Made by a program: the position numbers and the translations under genes. Below are positions 9,398 to 13,333 of a stretch of 64,000 nt of DNA, in pieces. Each line of letters opens with the position of its first letter. The first letter of the stretch is position 1. The DNA is from Escherichia phage vB_EcoS_AKFV33: the sequence record NC_017969.1; one strand, given 5' to 3'. Under the pieces are notes generated by a model that ran no database searches, had not been told where the DNA came from, and saw only the letters and a list, made by a program, of their open reading frames with translations.

Positions 9398-9430
9398 AGC
9401 CGGGTTGCTAGTCGACCTGGCTTTTATTTT
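9398..9430 (+). terminator. rho-independent terminator after nrdD
   Basis: AGCCGGGT / ACCTGGCT stem (one G-U pair) followed by a T-rich run. Confidence 0.55.
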
Positions 9431-9432
9431 AT

Positions 9433-9461
9433 TTGCTTTCAGCCAAAAATTTATATATAAT
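9433..9461 (+). promoter_or_regulatory. T5-type early promoter (TTGCTT-17-TATAAT)
   Basis: Exact -10 consensus with 17 nt spacing, then the conserved leader AGATTTATAAATTTGAGGAGG shared by the other promoters of this family. Confidence 0.8.
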
Positions 9462-9490
9462 AGATTTATAAATTTGAGGAGGTAGGAATT

Positions 9491-9871
9491 ATGACTTTAA
9501 AACCGTATATAGTGGAGTCTACGTGTGGCAGTTTCCACCTGGGTGTGGATGATATTGCTGAGGCTGTCTTTGCTGCCACAGGTGATTACTCTCATATAGG
9601 GGGTGCTGGGTACCCCACCGTTATTGGCGATTGGGTGGAAACAAATCTAGATGTGTCGCCTTATAACCCGTATTGCTTGTTTGATGAAGACAGAGATGAG
9701 GTAAAGTGTAATCTTGAATTTGTGTATAATAGAGTATTAAAAGTATACCAACGTAGTCCCGAGGGGTACGAAGATATTACTTGTAGTATTAAACAGTATC
9801 TTAAAGATGTATACTCTAGTTTTTCTGACGAAGGCCTAGAAACAGTTGCAGTGGAGTTTAATAATGACTAA
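9491..9871 (+). CDS. hypothetical protein
   Basis: 126 aa; first gene after the promoter; no CxxxCxxC radical-SAM motif, so not an NrdG activase. Confidence 0.5.
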   Translation: MTLKPYIVESTCGSFHLGVDDIAEAVFAATGDYSHIGGAGYPTVIGDWVETNLDVSPYNPYCLFDEDRDEVKCNLEFVYNRVLKVYQRSPEGYEDITCSIKQYLKDVYSSFSDEGLETVAVEFNND

Positions 9872-10070
9872 GAATGTGAAACACCTTAAATATCGCTTAA
9901 TCTATAACGGACGTATGGAAACAGAAGATCTGGCCCAATTAGCTATTAATTCTAATGAGGTTATGGTGCGTGCGCTAGCAATTGAAAAGTTGCGTGCTTC
10001 TTATGAAAATCATGTTATGGAACTAGAGGAGAAACTGTATGGACTTCTTGAATCAGAGTCTAAAAAGTAA
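9864..10070 (+). CDS. hypothetical protein
   Basis: 68 aa from ATG 9864 with a GGAG Shine-Dalgarno; overlaps the upstream stop. Confidence 0.45.
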   Translation: MTKNVKHLKYRLIYNGRMETEDLAQLAINSNEVMVRALAIEKLRASYENHVMELEEKLYGLLESESKK

Positions 10071-10233
10071 TCCAGAAAACATGCTTATTGAGCAATGGAA
10101 CTTTGGTTATAATGCCGGTATAGCTACTTGTATTGCTAGATTGGATATGCTTATTAAGCAAGAAAAGGTACGCCCGGAGGAAGCAATTTTACTCCGAAAT
10201 ATTATCGAAGGATTTAAGCAAGGAATCGTATAG
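10039..10233 (+). CDS. hypothetical protein
   Basis: 64 aa; GAGGAG Shine-Dalgarno 7 nt upstream. Confidence 0.45.
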   Translation: MDFLNQSLKSNPENMLIEQWNFGYNAGIATCIARLDMLIKQEKVRPEEAILLRNIIEGFKQGIV

Positions 10234-11051
10234 TGCGTAGATTAATTATTATTAGCGGTGCAGGTTTGAGTGTTGAAAGTGGTGTACGAGCTTTTCGTAC
10301 TGATACTGCTAGTGGTAAAGCACTGTGGGATGATTATGATCTAGAAGAAGTATGTAATATTCATGCCTTTCGTGGTAATTTTTATCATAAAACCCATATG
10401 TTTTACAACAAGCGTCGTGAAGAGCTAAAAACTGTTGAACCCAATCTTGCACACTTGCGTATTGGTGAATGGTATAAACAATATCCAGGTCAAGTAGTAA
10501 ACTTGACTACCAACGTTGATGACCTTATTGAGCGTGCTGGCGTTCCACATAGTGACATTCTGCACATTCACGGATATTTAAAAGAGGTTGTTGTAGCTGA
10601 TAGCTACAATAGTAGCAATAAACGGATTATTGATGTAGGGTATAATTCTATTGATCCAGATGATTATAAATGGGTTAAACCTAATGTTATCTTCTTTGGT
10701 GAGGTTGCTCCTGCCTATAAAACAATGTATGAGGTTTTTGATGGTATCACCAGTCATGATATGATCATCATTGTTGGGTGCTCTAACCAAGTAATTAACT
10801 TCTACTGGGAGCTATTTCCTATTCTGAATCTTACTGCTGCAAAACTTATGGTAGTTAACTATTACGATAGTGCAGTAGCTATGGAACCAGGCTATCAGGG
10901 CATGACTCGTAGTGAAATGTATCAGTTAGAAGAACGTGGTATTCCTTACTGGAGTAAAGGTGCTGTGGATGCCTTTAGTGATCCCGATTTTATTGCTCGT
11001 GTGGAAGCTCATCTAGAAGGTAAACCCTATGTCCAACAAAAGCATGTGTGA
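10233..11051 (+). CDS. sirtuin-like (Sir2 family) protein lacking the zinc-ribbon module
   Basis: 272 aa; GTG start overlapping the upstream stop; sirtuin blocks in order: GAGLSVESGVRAFR, TTNVDDLIERAG, HIHGYL (catalytic His), PNVIFFGE, IIIVGCS; no Cys cluster where canonical sirtuins bind zinc. Confidence 0.7.
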   Translation: MRRLIIISGAGLSVESGVRAFRTDTASGKALWDDYDLEEVCNIHAFRGNFYHKTHMFYNKRREELKTVEPNLAHLRIGEWYKQYPGQVVNLTTNVDDLIERAGVPHSDILHIHGYLKEVVVADSYNSSNKRIIDVGYNSIDPDDYKWVKPNVIFFGEVAPAYKTMYEVFDGITSHDMIIIVGCSNQVINFYWELFPILNLTAAKLMVVNYYDSAVAMEPGYQGMTRSEMYQLEERGIPYWSKGAVDAFSDPDFIARVEAHLEGKPYVQQKHV

Positions 11052-11211
11052 TCTTTTAGTGTGGCCGGACGGTAGTTGGTGCTACCGTTTCGAATTTGCT
11101 ACCGATGATTTCTCATGGAAGAGTGATGATTTCTGTGTTATCTATGAAGATACAGCAGAATGGAAAGAGTTCCTTATTAAGGAGGGAGAATATGGTGAAG
11201 AAGATTTTTAA
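11029..11211 (+). CDS. hypothetical small acidic protein
   Basis: 60 aa, Asp/Glu-rich C-terminus; overlaps the Sir2-like stop. Confidence 0.4.
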   Translation: MSNKSMCDLLVWPDGSWCYRFEFATDDFSWKSDDFCVIYEDTAEWKEFLIKEGEYGEEDF

Positions 11212-11377
11212 GGGTATCTGGAAAGGTCTAGTATGGTTTGTCAACCTAATCGGTATGATTACCATTTATTCTCTGTTCCTATCTGTTATGTGGGGTAAAG
11301 GTGAATTGAAGGTTCCAGTTCCTTTTACTGATGAAGTTAAAGTCTGGACGTGGGATGCTACTGGTGGAAATAAGTAA
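11192..11377 (+). CDS. small membrane protein
   Basis: 61 aa from ATG 11192 with an AAGGAGGG Shine-Dalgarno; one hydrophobic helix (WFVNLIGMITIYSLFLSVMW). Confidence 0.5.
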   Translation: MVKKIFKGIWKGLVWFVNLIGMITIYSLFLSVMWGKGELKVPVPFTDEVKVWTWDATGGNK

Positions 11378-11870
11378 TACTCCTGTGATTTTCCTGGATA
11401 TTGATGGGGTGCTCAATTCGAGCATCTCCCACCATCATGCACCTGATGATGAAAAGATTTTCTTTGGGAGTGACTGGGTTTTCAAACCGCTTCTCAAGGC
11501 TTTTCAAGATTTTATTCGTCCTTCCTCGATAATGATTGTTGGGGTATCCTCATGGTTCTCTGTCAGGAATGAGATGGAGAACGTTCAGATTATGACCGGA
11601 TTAGGTCTTATCGATCGTTTTCTTGGTACAACGGATTTTACTGGTGGTGGATTATCTAGGGGTAATTCTGTTCTTCGCTTCGTTGAAAAGCATAAGCTCA
11701 AACATTGGTGTGTACTGGATGACGCTGGTGCTATGATGTATCAGTATCCAACGGTTATAGTCAATGGTAGAACTGGAATAAATCTTCAAGATTTAAAAGC
11801 TGTTAGCTATATGCTAGAATTTAGCCCAGATCTTGAAATGTGTAAATCCTTACAACAATTTAAGGTGTAA
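11331..11870 (+). CDS. HAD-superfamily-like hydrolase (phosphatase candidate)
   Basis: FLDIDGVLN near the N-terminus fits HAD motif I (DxDG); true start uncertain (ATG 11331, ATG 11355 or a later GTG). Confidence 0.45.
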   Translation: MKLKSGRGMLLVEISNTPVIFLDIDGVLNSSISHHHAPDDEKIFFGSDWVFKPLLKAFQDFIRPSSIMIVGVSSWFSVRNEMENVQIMTGLGLIDRFLGTTDFTGGGLSRGNSVLRFVEKHKLKHWCVLDDAGAMMYQYPTVIVNGRTGINLQDLKAVSYMLEFSPDLEMCKSLQQFKV

Positions 11871-11872
11871 AT

Positions 11873-12301
11873 ATGTTCAATAATGTATTCTCTAAAGAAG
11901 CTAACCCAATTTTGGTTAACTTTTGGCGTACTCTCCCAGCTAGCCTGTATAATGAGGCTATTAACTCTTTGAAAATATGGTGTGAGAATAACGAAATCTC
12001 CTTTGCTTTTAAAGATGATATTGATGAGGCTCCCTGTATTGGTTTAATTGTGCAGGTAGAGGAGGGTCTTGAAGAGATTGTGGGCTGGAAAGAGTTAGAC
12101 GAAATGGGCTTAGTTTTTGCGTTAAATTATAAACTGTTTATGCCTGCTAAGCATCGCCTTGTTGTTAACTATAAAACTAGTGAATCTCCTGGTTTTCAGG
12201 TTAATGAACGTTATGGTTGGTCTTACTCACCGGAAGAAGTAAATGAGGGGATTCAGAAACTTCGACGTTTCGGGTATATGATCCCGGGTTTAACTGCTTA
12301 A
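11873..12301 (+). CDS. hypothetical protein (tandem paralog A)
   Basis: 142 aa; shares PCIG, W.E...L..ALN..LF.P and Y.PGL blocks with the next ORF. Confidence 0.5.
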   Translation: MFNNVFSKEANPILVNFWRTLPASLYNEAINSLKIWCENNEISFAFKDDIDEAPCIGLIVQVEEGLEEIVGWKELDEMGLVFALNYKLFMPAKHRLVVNYKTSESPGFQVNERYGWSYSPEEVNEGIQKLRRFGYMIPGLTA

Positions 12302-12310
12302 GGAGGCAGG

Positions 12311-12703
12311 ATGGAACAAGTATATTGGCGTCAGATTGACCCTAGTTTGGTGAAACGTGCGGAGAAGCTGCTACAACGTTGGTTGGGGGTAAGGCAAGCC
12401 TCCTTCTCTTTTCCGGAGCAGCAAACGGATGATCCATGCATTGGCGTTTTCCTGTCTGGATATGCCGGGGAATGGGAGATGGATTGGAATGAATTGTCCG
12501 CTATGAGTTTAATTGTTGCCCTAAATTTCTCTTTGTTCCATCCACGTGGTTTGGCCATATGTCGTGTGCCTGATGACGGTTGTTCGCCCCATCTTTTACA
12601 GGTGGAAGATGATATTTGGGAGTACACTCCAGATATTCTCAAAGAAGCTAAAGAACAATTAAACCGTGTTGGGATTTATGTTCCAGGCCTAAATGATGAA
12701 TGA
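12311..12703 (+). CDS. hypothetical protein (tandem paralog B)
   Basis: 130 aa; paralog of 11873..12301; AGGAGG Shine-Dalgarno. Confidence 0.5.
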   Translation: MEQVYWRQIDPSLVKRAEKLLQRWLGVRQASFSFPEQQTDDPCIGVFLSGYAGEWEMDWNELSAMSLIVALNFSLFHPRGLAICRVPDDGCSPHLLQVEDDIWEYTPDILKEAKEQLNRVGIYVPGLNDE

Positions 12704-12794
12704 TTTTTATTAGCTGAAATTTGTAATCCGGGCTATTAGTGCTCGGATTATTACATAATCTTTCCAGTCGATTGACAGTCAAAATAAATTGTCG

Positions 12795-12825
12795 TTGACA
12801 ATTTGGATGGATTATGTAATAATAT
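12795..12825 (+). promoter_or_regulatory. sigma70 promoter for the HNH gene
   Basis: TTGACA at 12795-12800, about 17 nt spacer, TAATAT-type -10; flanked by TTGAC-containing inverted repeats. Confidence 0.55.
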
Positions 12826-12842
12826 ATGTATTGGAGGTGAGG

Positions 12843-13295
12843 ATGTCATTCACACAGCAAGAACTTTTAGATAACTTCCGATATGAAGATGGTAAGTTAT
12901 TTAGAACTACAGGAAGAAATGCAGGGAAAGAATGTTGTGTTTCTACGGGTAACGGATATTATCGTATATCTCTAGGGAATAGGACTATGCTTCGGCATAG
13001 AGCAATATTTTTAATGCATCATGGATACTTACCTGATTTAGTAGATCATGTGAATACTATAAAAGGTGATGATCGTATTGAAAATCTTAGAGAGCAGACA
13101 GTGTCCGGTAATCTAAGAAATATCAAATATAAGAAAGGAATGCATGTTTACCCTTCTGGTAGTAAGAACTGGCAAGTAGTATTTACTATTAACCGTAAAC
13201 GTATAGTTAAAGGAACATATGACAACTATGAGGTTGCATGTTCTATGGCCAAGATGTTTAGAGGTCAATTATACGGTAGGGAATCAATCCAGTAA
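12843..13295 (+). CDS. HNH homing endonuclease (free-standing)
   Basis: HHGYLPDLVDHVNTIKGDDRIENLREQT fits the HNH_3 motif; start placed at ATG 12843 with a GGAGGTGAGG Shine-Dalgarno; AGA/AGG/ATA-rich codons. Confidence 0.75.
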   Translation: MSFTQQELLDNFRYEDGKLFRTTGRNAGKECCVSTGNGYYRISLGNRTMLRHRAIFLMHHGYLPDLVDHVNTIKGDDRIENLREQTVSGNLRNIKYKKGMHVYPSGSKNWQVVFTINRKRIVKGTYDNYEVACSMAKMFRGQLYGRESIQ

Positions 13296-13303
13296 AATTT
13301 CAT

Positions 13304-13333
13304 TTGCAAGGGAGTATTATTTTATAGTATAAT
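13304..13333 (+). promoter_or_regulatory. T5-type early promoter (TTGCAA-18-TATAAT)
   Basis: Near-consensus elements followed by the ATAAATGAGAGA leader; it fires into a roughly 490 nt region with no convincing ORF. Confidence 0.6.

Follow-up and report, generated by a model that had tools for sequence, protein, structure and literature searches.

A T5.102-type Sir2-like protein and its HAD phosphatase partner in the early operon of Escherichia phage vB_EcoS_AKFV33: a tentative role in RNA 2'-phosphate removal

The sirtuin operon of T5-like phages is real and already known. T5.102 has carried the annotation "Sir2-like" since 2004, Sir2-like genes are annotated in the records of both T5 and FFH1, and annotated copies exist in hundreds of genomes. 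Two published analyses bear on its function. Skliros et al. (2016; PMC5107563) described phage Sir2/CobB proteins without a zinc site, named T5 among the carriers of a homolog, and proposed that the sirtuin of KVP40-type phages deacetylates host acetyl-CoA synthetase. Iyer, Burroughs, Anantharaman and Aravind (2022; PMC9503650) described a T5-like neighbourhood in which the sirtuin is accompanied by a "Swiss-army-knife" HAD phosphatase, and predicted that its sirtuin removes RNA 2'-phosphates in a KptA-like manner. Experimental work on the function of a T5.102-type sirtuin was not found in our literature searches. Here we describe the corresponding locus in a window of 64,000 nucleotides from phage AKFV33 (NC_017969.1), for which an initial annotation had overlooked both the existing gene annotation and the published RNA 2'-phosphate hypothesis.

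The T5.100-T5.107 early operon in AKFV33

Comparison of the window identifies the source as a T5-like phage (96.6% nucleotide identity to FFH1, 92% to T5) and shows positions 9433-12703 to be its T5.100-T5.107 early operon, flanked as in T5 by nrdD on one side and the origin-binding protein gene on the other. All features described here lie on the plus strand. The upstream limit of the operon is the intrinsic nrdD terminator, a hairpin followed by a T-run (9398-9422), which was found by a terminator scan and which the T5 record annotates at the homologous place; from there to 12703 run nine ORFs whose junctions are overlaps or gaps of a few bases at most. Reading of the sequence places a T5-type early promoter at 9433-9461, with a -35 element TTGCTT (9433-9438), a 17-nt spacer and a -10 element TATAAT (9456-9461), and a near-identical sequence occurs in T5, whose record annotates a promoter there. 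A generic promoter scanner did not call it, because the -35 hexamer fits the consensus at 3 of 6 positions and falls under the threshold. After the last gene, an imperfect hairpin without a T-run (12725-12749), likewise read from the sequence and not reported by the terminator scanner, occupies the position of a putative terminator in the T5 record. The initial description of a phage early accessory operon, with about nine tightly packed genes behind a single promoter, is supported. That this operon is "built around" its sirtuin was too strong a statement, as phage DT57C keeps the pair of DUF7415 genes without Sir2 and HAD, phage Sugarland has Sir2 and DUF7415 without HAD, and the operon genes are of mosaic ancestry. 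AKFV33 also differs from T5 beyond the end of the operon, where it has an HNH endonuclease insertion.

The operon opens with ORF1 (9491-9871; 126 aa), a very acidic T5.100 homolog (pI 4.2; PHROG 11748) that is 97-99% identical to its T5 and FFH1 counterparts. It is followed by ORF2 (9864-10070; 68 aa; PHROG 5236), a homolog of T5.101 and FFH1 ORF101 whose start was chosen to suit both the extent of the PHROG 5236 match and the annotated FFH1 gene, and by ORF3 (10039-10233; 64 aa), assigned as a homolog of FFH1 ORF102 from PHROG and homolog comparison. ORF3 is extra with respect to T5, as it is in FFH1: a nucleotide match to window positions 10077-10181 was not found in T5, and the gene is not annotated there. 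Beyond the Sir2 gene, whose end it overlaps, lies ORF5 (11029-11211; 60 aa), a highly acidic protein (pI 4.05) recognised by homolog comparison, with 97% identity to its TrudiRoth homolog and only 53-59% to those of T5 and FFH1. Since its place directly after Sir2 is kept in Sugarland, ORF5 is possibly a partner or regulator of the Sir2-like protein. ORF6 (11192-11377; 61 aa; PHROG 11166) starts at an ATG at 11192 preceded by the ribosome-binding site AAGGAGGG and is 100% identical to its TrudiRoth counterpart; tblastn searches of T5 and FFH1 returned no match, and it corresponds to T5.104 by position only. ORF6 is basic, and the one hydrophobic helix in its sequence suggests a putative membrane protein; ORF5 and ORF6 fit the small acidic and small membrane partners first described. 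In the ORF5/ORF6 segment AKFV33 follows the Epseptimavirus type and differs from T5.

The remaining three genes encode the T5.105 ortholog, a HAD-superfamily phosphatase (11355-11870), and two acidic DUF7415 paralogs, A (11873-12301; 142 aa; T5.106 ortholog) and B (12311-12703; 130 aa; T5.107 ortholog), which share 33% identity. The phosphatase, for which ATG 11355 and GTG 11364 are the candidate starts, belongs to the HAD_SAK_2 family (Pfam PF18143; E 2.9e-20, 73.5 bits against a cutoff of 27.5) and has an intact motif I (DIDGV); its comparison with PDB sequences gave no match. A HAD-like hydrolase and tandem paralogs had been correctly named as partners of the sirtuin, but the statement that none has an assignment did not hold, given the HAD_SAK_2 and DUF7415 families in Pfam.

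A sirtuin that has lost its zinc ligands

Profile matches place the 272-aa product of the GTG-initiated ORF at 10233-11051, the T5.102 ortholog, in the SIR2 family with E values that chance cannot account for (Pfam SIR2, E 1.5e-24; PHROG 2162, E 3e-120). The sirtuin blocks reported initially occur in order, with GAGLSVESGVRAFR at residue 9, TTNVDDL at 92, HG at 113 and PNVIFFGE at 150. The best match among PDB sequences is E. coli CobB (E 9e-18), which is also the nearest fold in a Foldseek search with the structure model (pLDDT 90; E 1e-17, TM 0.84), in agreement with the sirtuin fold first proposed. The description of the protein as zinc-module-less was right about the ligands: C41 and C183 are its only cysteines, neither lies in a zinc-ribbon position, and a CxxC pair is absent. 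The loss of the module was overstated, however, as the model keeps three ribbon-region strands (114-122, 131-134 and 147-152), suggesting that only the metal ligands, the four zinc cysteines, have gone.

All residues for NAD+ binding and sirtuin catalysis are kept. Those invariant in 34 homologs comprise G9/A10/G11/S13, F21, R22, N94, D96, H113, V152, F154, F155 and E157, and N94, H113 and G114 are invariant across 142 representatives. At residue 93, Thr replaces the Gln of the canonical motif, and beyond this Q93T change and the cysteine loss we found no positions that separate the clade from zinc-containing relatives. Matches occur in 996 phage records from many genera, 852 of them covering at least 80% of the protein, and sequence comparison shows that it groups with the cysteine-less sirtuins abundant in phage genomes. 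The protein is acidic, with a pI of 5.6 and a net charge of about -9.

Possible functions of the Sir2-like protein and its partner

Judging by its sequence, the Sir2-like protein is probably an active NAD+-consuming enzyme that uses the normal two-step sirtuin reaction. We tentatively favour, at a probability of roughly 0.35, an explanation in which it removes RNA 2'-phosphates together with its HAD partner, as an accessory pair that rescues cleaved RNAs. In the first step an oxygen of the substrate's anionic group would attack C1' of the nicotinamide ribose, with departure of nicotinamide, and in the second the adduct would be resolved by the ribose 2'-OH activated by His113. Following Iyer et al. 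(2022), the substrate is tentatively taken to be the RNA 2'-phosphate left once a 2',3'-cyclic end has been opened; the phosphate would leave in the style of KptA/Tpt1, as ADP-ribose 1'',2''-cyclic phosphate. The HAD_SAK_2 phosphatase would then take a phosphate either from an RNA end or from the ADP-ribose-phosphate by-product, and tRNAs or mRNAs that host ribonucleases have cleaved would be rescued. Within the same explanation, the two DUF7415 genes and the small ORFs would be separate modules that share the transcript. The Sir2/HAD pair would be accessory and dispensable for laboratory growth, as suggested by the viable phage DT57C, in which natural deletion has left only a 90-aa Sir2/HAD remnant.

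Several lines of evidence point to RNA 2'-phosphate chemistry. The two-step mechanisms of sirtuins and Tpt1 appear chemically parallel, and the phosphate/RNA context of this sirtuin group is reproduced independently in other phage lineages: rV5 has the gene order Rnl1 RNA ligase, cREC, Sir2; a Mydovirus has cREC, P-loop kinase, a 74-aa ORF, Sir2; and the jumbo Asteriusvirus has Sir2, a Nudt16-like Nudix gene, cREC. In the AKFV33 window the sirtuin's neighbour of this kind is HAD_SAK_2, and it is to precisely such an SP15/T5-type neighbourhood that the prediction of Iyer et al. (2022) applies. Elsewhere, rnlA of Aeromonas phage Ah1 is flanked by a HAD gene and a half-size DUF7415 gene, and in Acinetobacter phage ABPH49 a HAD_SAK_2 homolog heads an operon of Prs-like and NAPRTase-like genes. 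The latter position parallels that of the ADPR-1''-phosphate phosphatase demonstrated for NARP1 operons of the extended type, making an ADP-ribose-phosphate substrate plausible for the HAD protein.

Other observations count against the RNA reading. Homologs of RNA ligase, cREC and Nudix are absent from the window and from T5 positions 1-62 kb, and a kinase search of the same sequences gave nothing convincing (one weak match, E 0.027, near T5 dnk); with no RNA ligase found in this T5-like DNA, the repair pathway would be incomplete unless a host ligase helps. An acidic protein would be unusual as an RNA-binding enzyme, the function of cREC is itself a prediction, and the sirtuins of Sugarland, phi92-like and KVP40-type phages are without any RNA-repair neighbour. 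Moreover, the conserved acyl-lysine tunnel residues and YxxR dyad would be expected of a plain deacylase.

Lysine deacylation is accordingly a near-equal rival, if itself a doubtful one: an ordinary CobB/SIRT5-type enzyme, favouring acetyl or the acidic acyl groups (succinyl, malonyl, glutaryl), would free proteins of the host or the phage from inhibitory acylation early in infection, and the HAD protein would be unrelated or act on the O-acyl-ADP-ribose by-product. The nearest sequences and folds, CobB, Sir2Af1/2 and SIRT5, are deacylases, as is every matching NCBIfam model, and in both sequence and model the protein resembles the CobB/SIRT5 class. In the alignment with CobB its Y58-x-x-R61 dyad falls on the segment FYNARR, Y58, R61 and R62 being invariant in the clade, and VxFFGE and the other residues aligned with the CobB acyl-lysine tunnel are invariant as well. 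In SIRT5 and CobB, the YxxR dyad serves to bind the carboxylate of a succinyl group. Acetylation of phage proteins occurs in infected cells. From their model of the KVP40-type homolog, Skliros et al. (2016; PMC5107563) concluded that it retains the acetyl-lysine tunnel. Against this, all NCBIfam CobB models score the protein far under their curated cutoffs (99 bits for a cutoff of 243, 89 bits for one of 320), by which, on sequence, it is not a CobB ortholog; hosts already encode CobB; and deacylation leaves unexplained the repeated linkage of these sirtuins to cREC, Nudix, Rnl1, kinase and HAD genes across phage lineages.

It is unlikely that the protein is a macromolecular ADP-ribosyltransferase that, like T4 Alt/ModA/ModB or SirTM-type sirtuins, marks proteins or nucleic acids of the host for take-over. 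Sirtuins are able to ADP-ribosylate (reviewed by Iyer et al. 2022; PMC9503650), an ART-fold gene was not seen in the T5 annotation inspected, and the gene shares its early operon with several small acidic proteins of a kind typical of host take-over. Unlike in SirTM systems, however, a Macro-domain partner is absent, and the catalytic His and deacylase-type residues are all retained.

Less probable still is the NAD+ hydrolase or NAD+/ADP-ribose-directed counter-defence factor of the initial annotation, which would, for example, destroy ADP-ribose-derived immune signals or manipulate NAD+ pools. Phages and their hosts contend centrally over NAD+, NARP3 genes for NAD+ salvage occur in some T5-like phages, and the ABPH49 HAD_SAK_2 homolog sits in an operon resembling those for NAD+ reconstitution. 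The analogy with immune Sir2 NADases is nevertheless unsupported, because the protein is of CobB/SIRT5-class likeness, its invariant dyad and tunnel residues included, and matches no PADLOC defence Sir2 model at E ≤ 0.01; its fold neighbours are deacylases rather than ThsA, DSR or Sir2-HerA, and the domain stands alone without a defence-type sensor or partner. In TrudiRoth, the 12 kb around the Sir2 operon (genes 49-57) do not include NARP3 (genes 86/87). An NAD-dependent DNA ligase, seen in TrudiRoth, is moreover encoded by T5-like phages, so that a drain on NAD+ would harm the phage and a free-running phage NADase is implausible.

Very unlikely is an inactive or decaying gene whose small domain was destabilised by zinc loss: the deletion of Sir2 in DT57C, truncation of HAD in Shivani and missing zinc ligands would fit, but the breadth of the phage matches, the invariance of catalytic residues among homologs down to about 50% identity and a model confident even in the ribbon strands argue against it.

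Comparison with known systems

The defence Sir2 NADases (ThsA, DSR1/2, Sir2-HerA and SIR2-APAZ) share with the AKFV33 protein their superfamily and NAD+ as substrate; they are not among the best 50 structural neighbours of the model, and the AKFV33 protein is without a sensor domain or a partner gene. With KptA/Tpt1 the likeness would be one of chemistry, the proposed transfer of ADP-ribose from NAD+ to a phosphate oxygen and subsequent cyclisation by the ribose 2''-OH, whereas the folds are unrelated (ART against Rossmann-type sirtuin). We know of no sirtuin shown to act on RNA phosphates. CobB and human and zebrafish SIRT5, which are class III sirtuin deacylases, have in common with the T5.102 ortholog the GAGxS, FR, N-x-D, HG and FGE motifs and the YxxR dyad, but only about 25% of residues are identical, the phage protein lacks the zinc cysteines, and TTNVD replaces TQNID. 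Closer is the Sir2/CobB protein of KVP40-type Vibrio phages, 35% identical and likewise reported without a zinc site, although these phages belong to a different family and their gene is without HAD or DUF7415 neighbours.

The AKFV33 operon does not differ in kind from the type 3 RNA-repair neighbourhood of the phage sirtuin clade, described in Escherichia phage SP15 (Iyer et al. 2022; PMC9503650). SP15 was confirmed as T5-like, and its DUF7415 protein is 92% identical to that of AKFV33. What the present analysis adds to that description is that no RNA ligase, kinase or cREC could be recognised in the T5-like DNA searched, and that the Sugarland operon is without HAD. Closest of all are T5.102, the "putative Sir2-like protein" of T5, and its Demerecviridae orthologs (PHROG 2162), which share with the AKFV33 protein the same locus, the same length and about 93% amino acid identity, flanked in T5 by the same T5.100-T5.107 genes.

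Identity and mosaic structure of the operon

In a megablast search the stretch 9433-12703 matched 444 GenBank phage records, all T5-like by name, with Escherichia phage FFH1 as the top match (96.6% identity) and T5 itself at 92%. In the T5 record the homologous stretch is bounded by nrdD (T5.099) and by T5.108, which encodes the replication-origin binding protein; eight genes (T5.100-T5.107) are annotated in it, preceded by a terminator and a promoter and followed by a putative terminator. In the FFH1 record nine genes are annotated. On the basis of this homology to the FFH1/T5 locus we assign the window to a Tequintavirus genome and 9433-12703 to the well-known T5.100-T5.107 early operon. The ORF list, together with inspection of start codons and ribosome-binding sites, bore out the nine tightly packed genes described in the initial annotation. 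All lie on the plus strand (9491-9871, 9864-10070, 10039-10233, 10233-11051, 11029-11211, 11192-11377, 11355/11364-11870, 11873-12301 and 12311-12703), with junctions that overlap or leave gaps of a few bases at most. A terminator scan located the nrdD terminator hairpin at 9398-9422, and directly after it we found the promoter that had been proposed for the operon (TTGCTT-17 nt-TATAAT, 9433-9461), T5 having an annotated promoter at a near-identical sequence. A generic promoter scanner did not report this site because its -35 hexamer fits only three consensus positions; we take the promoter to resemble closely the classical strong T5 promoters such as PN25. No tRNA genes were found in the window, and T5 carries about two dozen elsewhere in its genome.

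The partner proteins were likewise much as first described: two are small, one acidic (60 aa, pI 4.05) and one basic with a single hydrophobic stretch (61 aa), and alongside them are a HAD hydrolase and a tandem pair of paralogs that share 33% identity. The statement that none has an assigned function did not hold, as the hydrolase belongs to Pfam HAD_SAK_2 and the paralogs to DUF7415. Nor is the operon built around the sirtuin (10233-11051); it is a mosaic of exchangeable modules. Compared with Epseptimavirus TrudiRoth, ORF5 (11029-11211), ORF6 (11192-11377) and the HAD protein are 97%, 100% and 91% identical, respectively, whereas the sirtuin is only 51% and the DUF7415 proteins 70-75% identical; furthermore, the DNA of ORF5 and ORF6 (11033-11364) has no nucleotide match in T5 or FFH1. 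Since the 51% identical sirtuin lies between the same flanks, operons that are otherwise alike carry one or other of two sirtuin alleles that have diverged deeply. In phage DT57C, a 90-aa in-frame remnant annotated as 'defective' joins the end of Sir2 to the end of HAD and both DUF7415 genes are kept, so that the Sir2/HAD pair is dispensable and the DUF7415 pair independent of it.

Several further features of the locus were observed. ORF5, which is small and acidic, overlaps the 3' end of the sirtuin gene and shares the motif LxWP[DN]GSWCYR with a homolog in the Klebsiella T5-like phage Sugarland (locus L008, 4437-4601). The Sugarland sirtuin is only 48% identical, yet the ORF5 homolog still directly follows it, and ORF5 could be a dedicated sirtuin partner or regulator. 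PHROG 18062, labelled 'Sir2 (NAD-dependent deacetylase)', matches residues 88-179 of the HAD protein (11592-11870, E 7e-58) and weakly the Sir2 end, and through this label 'Sir2' occurs twice in this operon in RefSeq records. The family appears to have been seeded by Sir2/HAD fusion remnants of the DT57C type (DT57C locus L012, 2980-3252), which would make its Sir2 label a propagated mis-annotation. Downstream of the operon, a stretch of ~609 bp (12719-13327) holds an HNH_3 homing-endonuclease ORF (12789-13295) with a near-consensus promoter (TTGACA-17 nt-AATAAT, 12795-12823) and stands in place of ~100 bp in FFH1, T5 and TrudiRoth being similar; it has the look of a homing endonuclease that recently inserted after the operon, ahead of the gene for the origin-binding protein.

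A sirtuin that has lost its zinc ligands

The 272-aa protein encoded at 10233-11051 is a genuine sirtuin without zinc cysteines. The four motifs originally named are present, at residues 9, 92, 113 and 150, and the sirtuin fold that they implied is corroborated by both profile and structure. Pfam SIR2 (PF02146) matches with 87.4 bits against a cutoff of 24 (E 1.5e-24) over profile positions 1-178 of 180, and PHROG 2162, 'Sir2 (NAD-dependent deacetylase)', matches with E 3e-120. Among solved structures, E. coli CobB (1s5p) is nearest in sequence (E 9e-18), with the archaeal Sir2Af proteins and SIRT5 next. The predicted structure (mean pLDDT 90, pTM 0.88) has a Rossmann-type fold and a small domain, is superposable on solved sirtuins, and finds CobB 1s5p as its top Foldseek match in the PDB (E 1.1e-17, target-normalised TM 0.84), all 50 matches listed being canonical deacylase sirtuins. 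Scores against the NCBIfam CobB models are all far under their cutoffs (NF040867, 89 bits against 320; NF001753, 99 bits against 243), and we therefore do not consider the protein, on its profile scores, to be a CobB ortholog.

Catalytic residues are strongly conserved. In an alignment of 34 close homologs (48-96% identity), G9, A10, G11, S13, F21, R22, Y58, R61, R62, T92, T93, N94, D96, H113, G114, K149, P150, V152, F154, F155 and E157 are invariant, a set that takes in the Asn/Asp pair and the catalytic His as well as the cofactor-binding loop, positions that align with the acyl-lysine tunnel, and a Y-x-x-R dyad. The dyad, Y58-x-x-R61, aligns with the FYNARR segment of CobB; it is the signature of class III sirtuins, in which it binds the carboxylate of succinyl-lysine. 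Across a wider set of 142 representatives, obtained from a HMMER scan of 1.84 billion representative proteins (2932 relatives at E<=0.001) by aligning those of the best 150 that were at least 200 residues long, N94 and H113 are invariant and both residues of the dyad are present in 100.

The initial annotation held that the protein has no zinc ribbon, which proved correct for the cysteines but not for the ribbon itself. C41 and C183 are the only cysteines, and none occurs between H113 and K149 (the HG to KPNV motifs) in any of the 34 close homologs; strands are nevertheless still predicted at the ribbon site (114-122, 131-134 and 147-152), so that in the model the ribbon is retained and only the metal ligands are lost. 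From the alignment, this loss is a derived trait of a sub-clade, in which the Gln of the QN(I/V)D motif is replaced by Thr (T93). The nearest representatives (33/142) combine TTNVD with no cysteines, 73/142 combine Gln with at least three cysteines, the farther relatives having TQN(I/V)D with four, and mixed states also occur (Gln without cysteines in 14, Thr with cysteines in 9). One zinc-containing relative, 44% identical, is encoded on a contig with ordinary cellular genes, including one for lipoate-protein ligase. Other than Q93T, no position was found to switch between the cysteine-less and zinc-containing groups. Clade-specific substitutions in the substrate loop (VxP region) were considered and rejected, as there are none besides Q93T and the loop varies in zinc-containing relatives too.

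Genomic neighbours of the phage sirtuins

A tblastn search with the sirtuin found matches in 996 phage records of the collection searched, among them T5-like phages of three genera, with identities of 58-62% in rV5-like phages and Mydovirus, 51% in phi92-like phages, 35-43% in KVP40-like Vibrio phages and 37% in the jumbo Asteriusvirus. In rV5, genes for T4-type RNA ligase 1 and then a cREC domain protein precede Sir2, and a gene for a 237-aa protein that matches no Pfam family follows it. In a Mydovirus (Klebsiella phage K45PH128C2) the real ORFs encode cREC, a P-loop kinase, a 74-aa ORF, Sir2 and a 433-aa ORF, the last of which is likely a ligase, judging by a KxDG-type motif in its translation. 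Asteriusvirus has the order Sir2, a Nudt16-like Nudix protein and cREC. From these neighbourhoods we conclude that the link between the sirtuin and phosphate- or nucleotide-processing enzymes is real, recurring in at least two lineages distinct from the T5-like phages, and that it is not universal: no informative flanking genes were found in phi92-like VEcB or KVP40, and Sugarland has the order nrdD, a 70-aa ORF, Sir2, the ORF5 homolog and two DUF7415 genes, with no HAD.

Two apparent links to NAD+ metabolism were discarded. In the K45PH128C2 record (OY978796.1, locus L004) the annotated coordinates disagree with the real ORFs, and the majority of features carry a partial or pseudo flag; through this shift, names such as 'nicotinamide-nucleotide adenylyltransferase' land on the sirtuin gene, and the apparent placement of Sir2 beside 'NMN adenylyltransferase' and 'PnuC' is an artefact. 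A linkage to NARP3 NAD+ salvage also failed, genes 86/87 of TrudiRoth not lying within 12 kb of its Sir2 operon (genes 49-57), and no NadR or PnuC annotation occurs in the T5 stretches examined.

The HAD protein (11355/11364-11870) matches HAD_SAK_2 (PF18143, 'HAD domain in Swiss Army Knife RNA repair proteins') with 73.5 bits against a cutoff of 27.5 (E 2.9e-20). Its catalytic DxDG(V/T) motif is intact (VIFLDIDGVLN), with a later DD motif in CVLDDAG, and it has no sequence match in the PDB. Homologs were matched in 493 phage records. In Aeromonas phage Ah1, denA and rnlA have a HAD_SAK_2 gene and a half-size DUF7415 gene on their flanks; the homologs in Morganella phage MP1 and Aeromonas phage PAc have uninformative hypothetical proteins as neighbours. 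In Acinetobacter phage ABPH49 (locus L009, 5980-9201) a HAD_SAK_2 gene, 38-39% identical, overlaps the start of a Prs-like gene that is followed by a NAPRTase-like gene, an arrangement that looks like a NARP1 NAD+ reconstitution operon with a phosphatase added. According to a 2026 preprint, some NARP1 operons include a Macro-domain phosphatase (Adpp) that turns ADPR-1''-phosphate into ADP-ribose. By analogy with this single ABPH49 locus, the HAD substrate may be an ADP-ribose phosphate instead of an RNA end.

Both paralogs (11873-12301 and 12311-12703) pass the DUF7415 (PF24187) profile threshold. In Jiaodavirus T4-like phages a half-size (77-aa) DUF7415 gene separates nrdD from nrdG, stop and start codons overlapping (locus L018, 2480-2713, in Klebsiella phage vB_Kpn_AM_K3), and another lies directly after rnlA in Ah1 (locus L007, 7995-8228). 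In T5-like phages the DUF7415 pair is likewise downstream of nrdD, and the family may be tied to anaerobic ribonucleotide reductase instead of the sirtuin.

Candidate reactions and related systems

The literature already covers the gene, its zinc-free state and its HAD partner, and offers two hypotheses about function. The Sir2 annotation of T5.102 ('putative Sir2-like protein') dates from the 2004 GenBank record. Skliros et al. 2016 (PMC5107563), working from a KVP40-type sirtuin, listed T5 among the phages carrying the gene, proposed that salt bridges stand in for the metal, judged the acetyl-lysine tunnel to be conserved and suggested host acetyl-CoA synthetase as a deacetylation target. 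Iyer et al. 2022 (PMC9503650) proposed that a distinct clade of phage sirtuins is KptA-like and removes 2'-phosphates from cleaved RNAs. The Sir2La preprint contained no relevant text on a zinc-free sirtuin, and we found no experimental work on any phage-encoded sirtuin in the literature.

Our proposals for function start from a sirtuin whose fold is predicted with confidence, which is strongly conserved and has all its catalytic residues, and which lies behind an early-type promoter. Such an enzyme probably consumes NAD+ by the usual two steps of sirtuin chemistry, an anionic group supplying the oxygen nucleophile, and two substrates compete. We put the probability that its substrate is an RNA 2'-phosphate, removed in the manner of KptA, at roughly one in three. 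HAD_SAK_2 would then clear a terminal phosphate or the ADP-ribose-phosphate by-product, and T5-like phages could, with a host ligase, rescue tRNAs cut by host nucleases. The recurrent linkage to RNA ligase, cREC, kinase, Nudix and HAD points this way, as does the close formal parallel that we draw between the sirtuin and Tpt1 mechanisms, and we tentatively extend it to a convergence, in which a cysteine-less sirtuin removes RNA 2'-phosphates by NAD+-dependent ADP-ribosyl transfer on a fold unrelated to that of Tpt1/KptA. Against it, searches of the window and of T5 1-62 kb gave no convincing homolog of RNA ligase, kinase, cREC, Nudix or CCA enzyme, the window is free of tRNA genes, and the sirtuin is acidic (pI 5.6).

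That the protein is instead a lysine deacylase is nearly as probable: deacylation is favoured by homology and by the invariance of both the YxxR dyad and the positions that align with the acyl-lysine tunnel, and it leaves the neighbourhoods unexplained. A macromolecular ADP-ribosyltransferase is unlikely; in SirTM systems the sirtuin adjoins a Macro-domain gene, and none of the nine operon ORFs nor the downstream HNH ORF contains a Macro domain. The NADase or counter-defence factor suggested in the initial annotation is less probable again. It found no backing in the PADLOC defence-system profiles, none of which matches the sirtuin at E<=0.01, or among the 50 fold matches listed, which include no defence-type Sir2. 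Two further observations speak against a phage enzyme that simply drains NAD+: an NAD-dependent DNA ligase is among the products of T5-like phages (seen in TrudiRoth), and the NARP3 genes of TrudiRoth are far from its Sir2 operon. A decaying gene is very improbable given the conservation of the catalytic residues.

As the gene, the loss of the zinc site and the HAD neighbour were all previously reported, there is nothing new in the finding itself, and since RNA 2'-phosphate removal has been predicted in print, only a proof of it would be novel. Removal of RNA phosphates would make this the first sirtuin with demonstrated activity on a nucleic-acid phosphate, extending sirtuin chemistry to nucleic acids and adding a phage RNA-repair route; deacylation would mean that the acylation of host or phage proteins is actively edited by phages. 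Either outcome would shed light on an accessory function that is widespread in phages employed in therapy and biocontrol, the sirtuin being spread over T5-like, rV5-like, phi92-like, KVP40-like and jumbo phages.

Compared with known systems, the sirtuin differs from the defence Sir2 NADases (ThsA, DSR, Sir2-HerA, SIR2-APAZ), which have a fused or adjacent sensor or partner such as SLOG, HerA, pAgo or TIR. It has none, being a stand-alone domain whose neighbours are small ORFs, HAD and DUF7415 proteins. The window instead matches the type 3 (SP15-like) neighbourhood of Iyer et al. 2022, with Sir2 (10233-11051) and HAD_SAK_2 (11355-11870) in one operon. SP15 is itself T5-like, since its DUF7415 protein is 92% identical to the window copy, and the same Sir2 and HAD_SAK_2 arrangement is found in T5, FFH1 and TrudiRoth.
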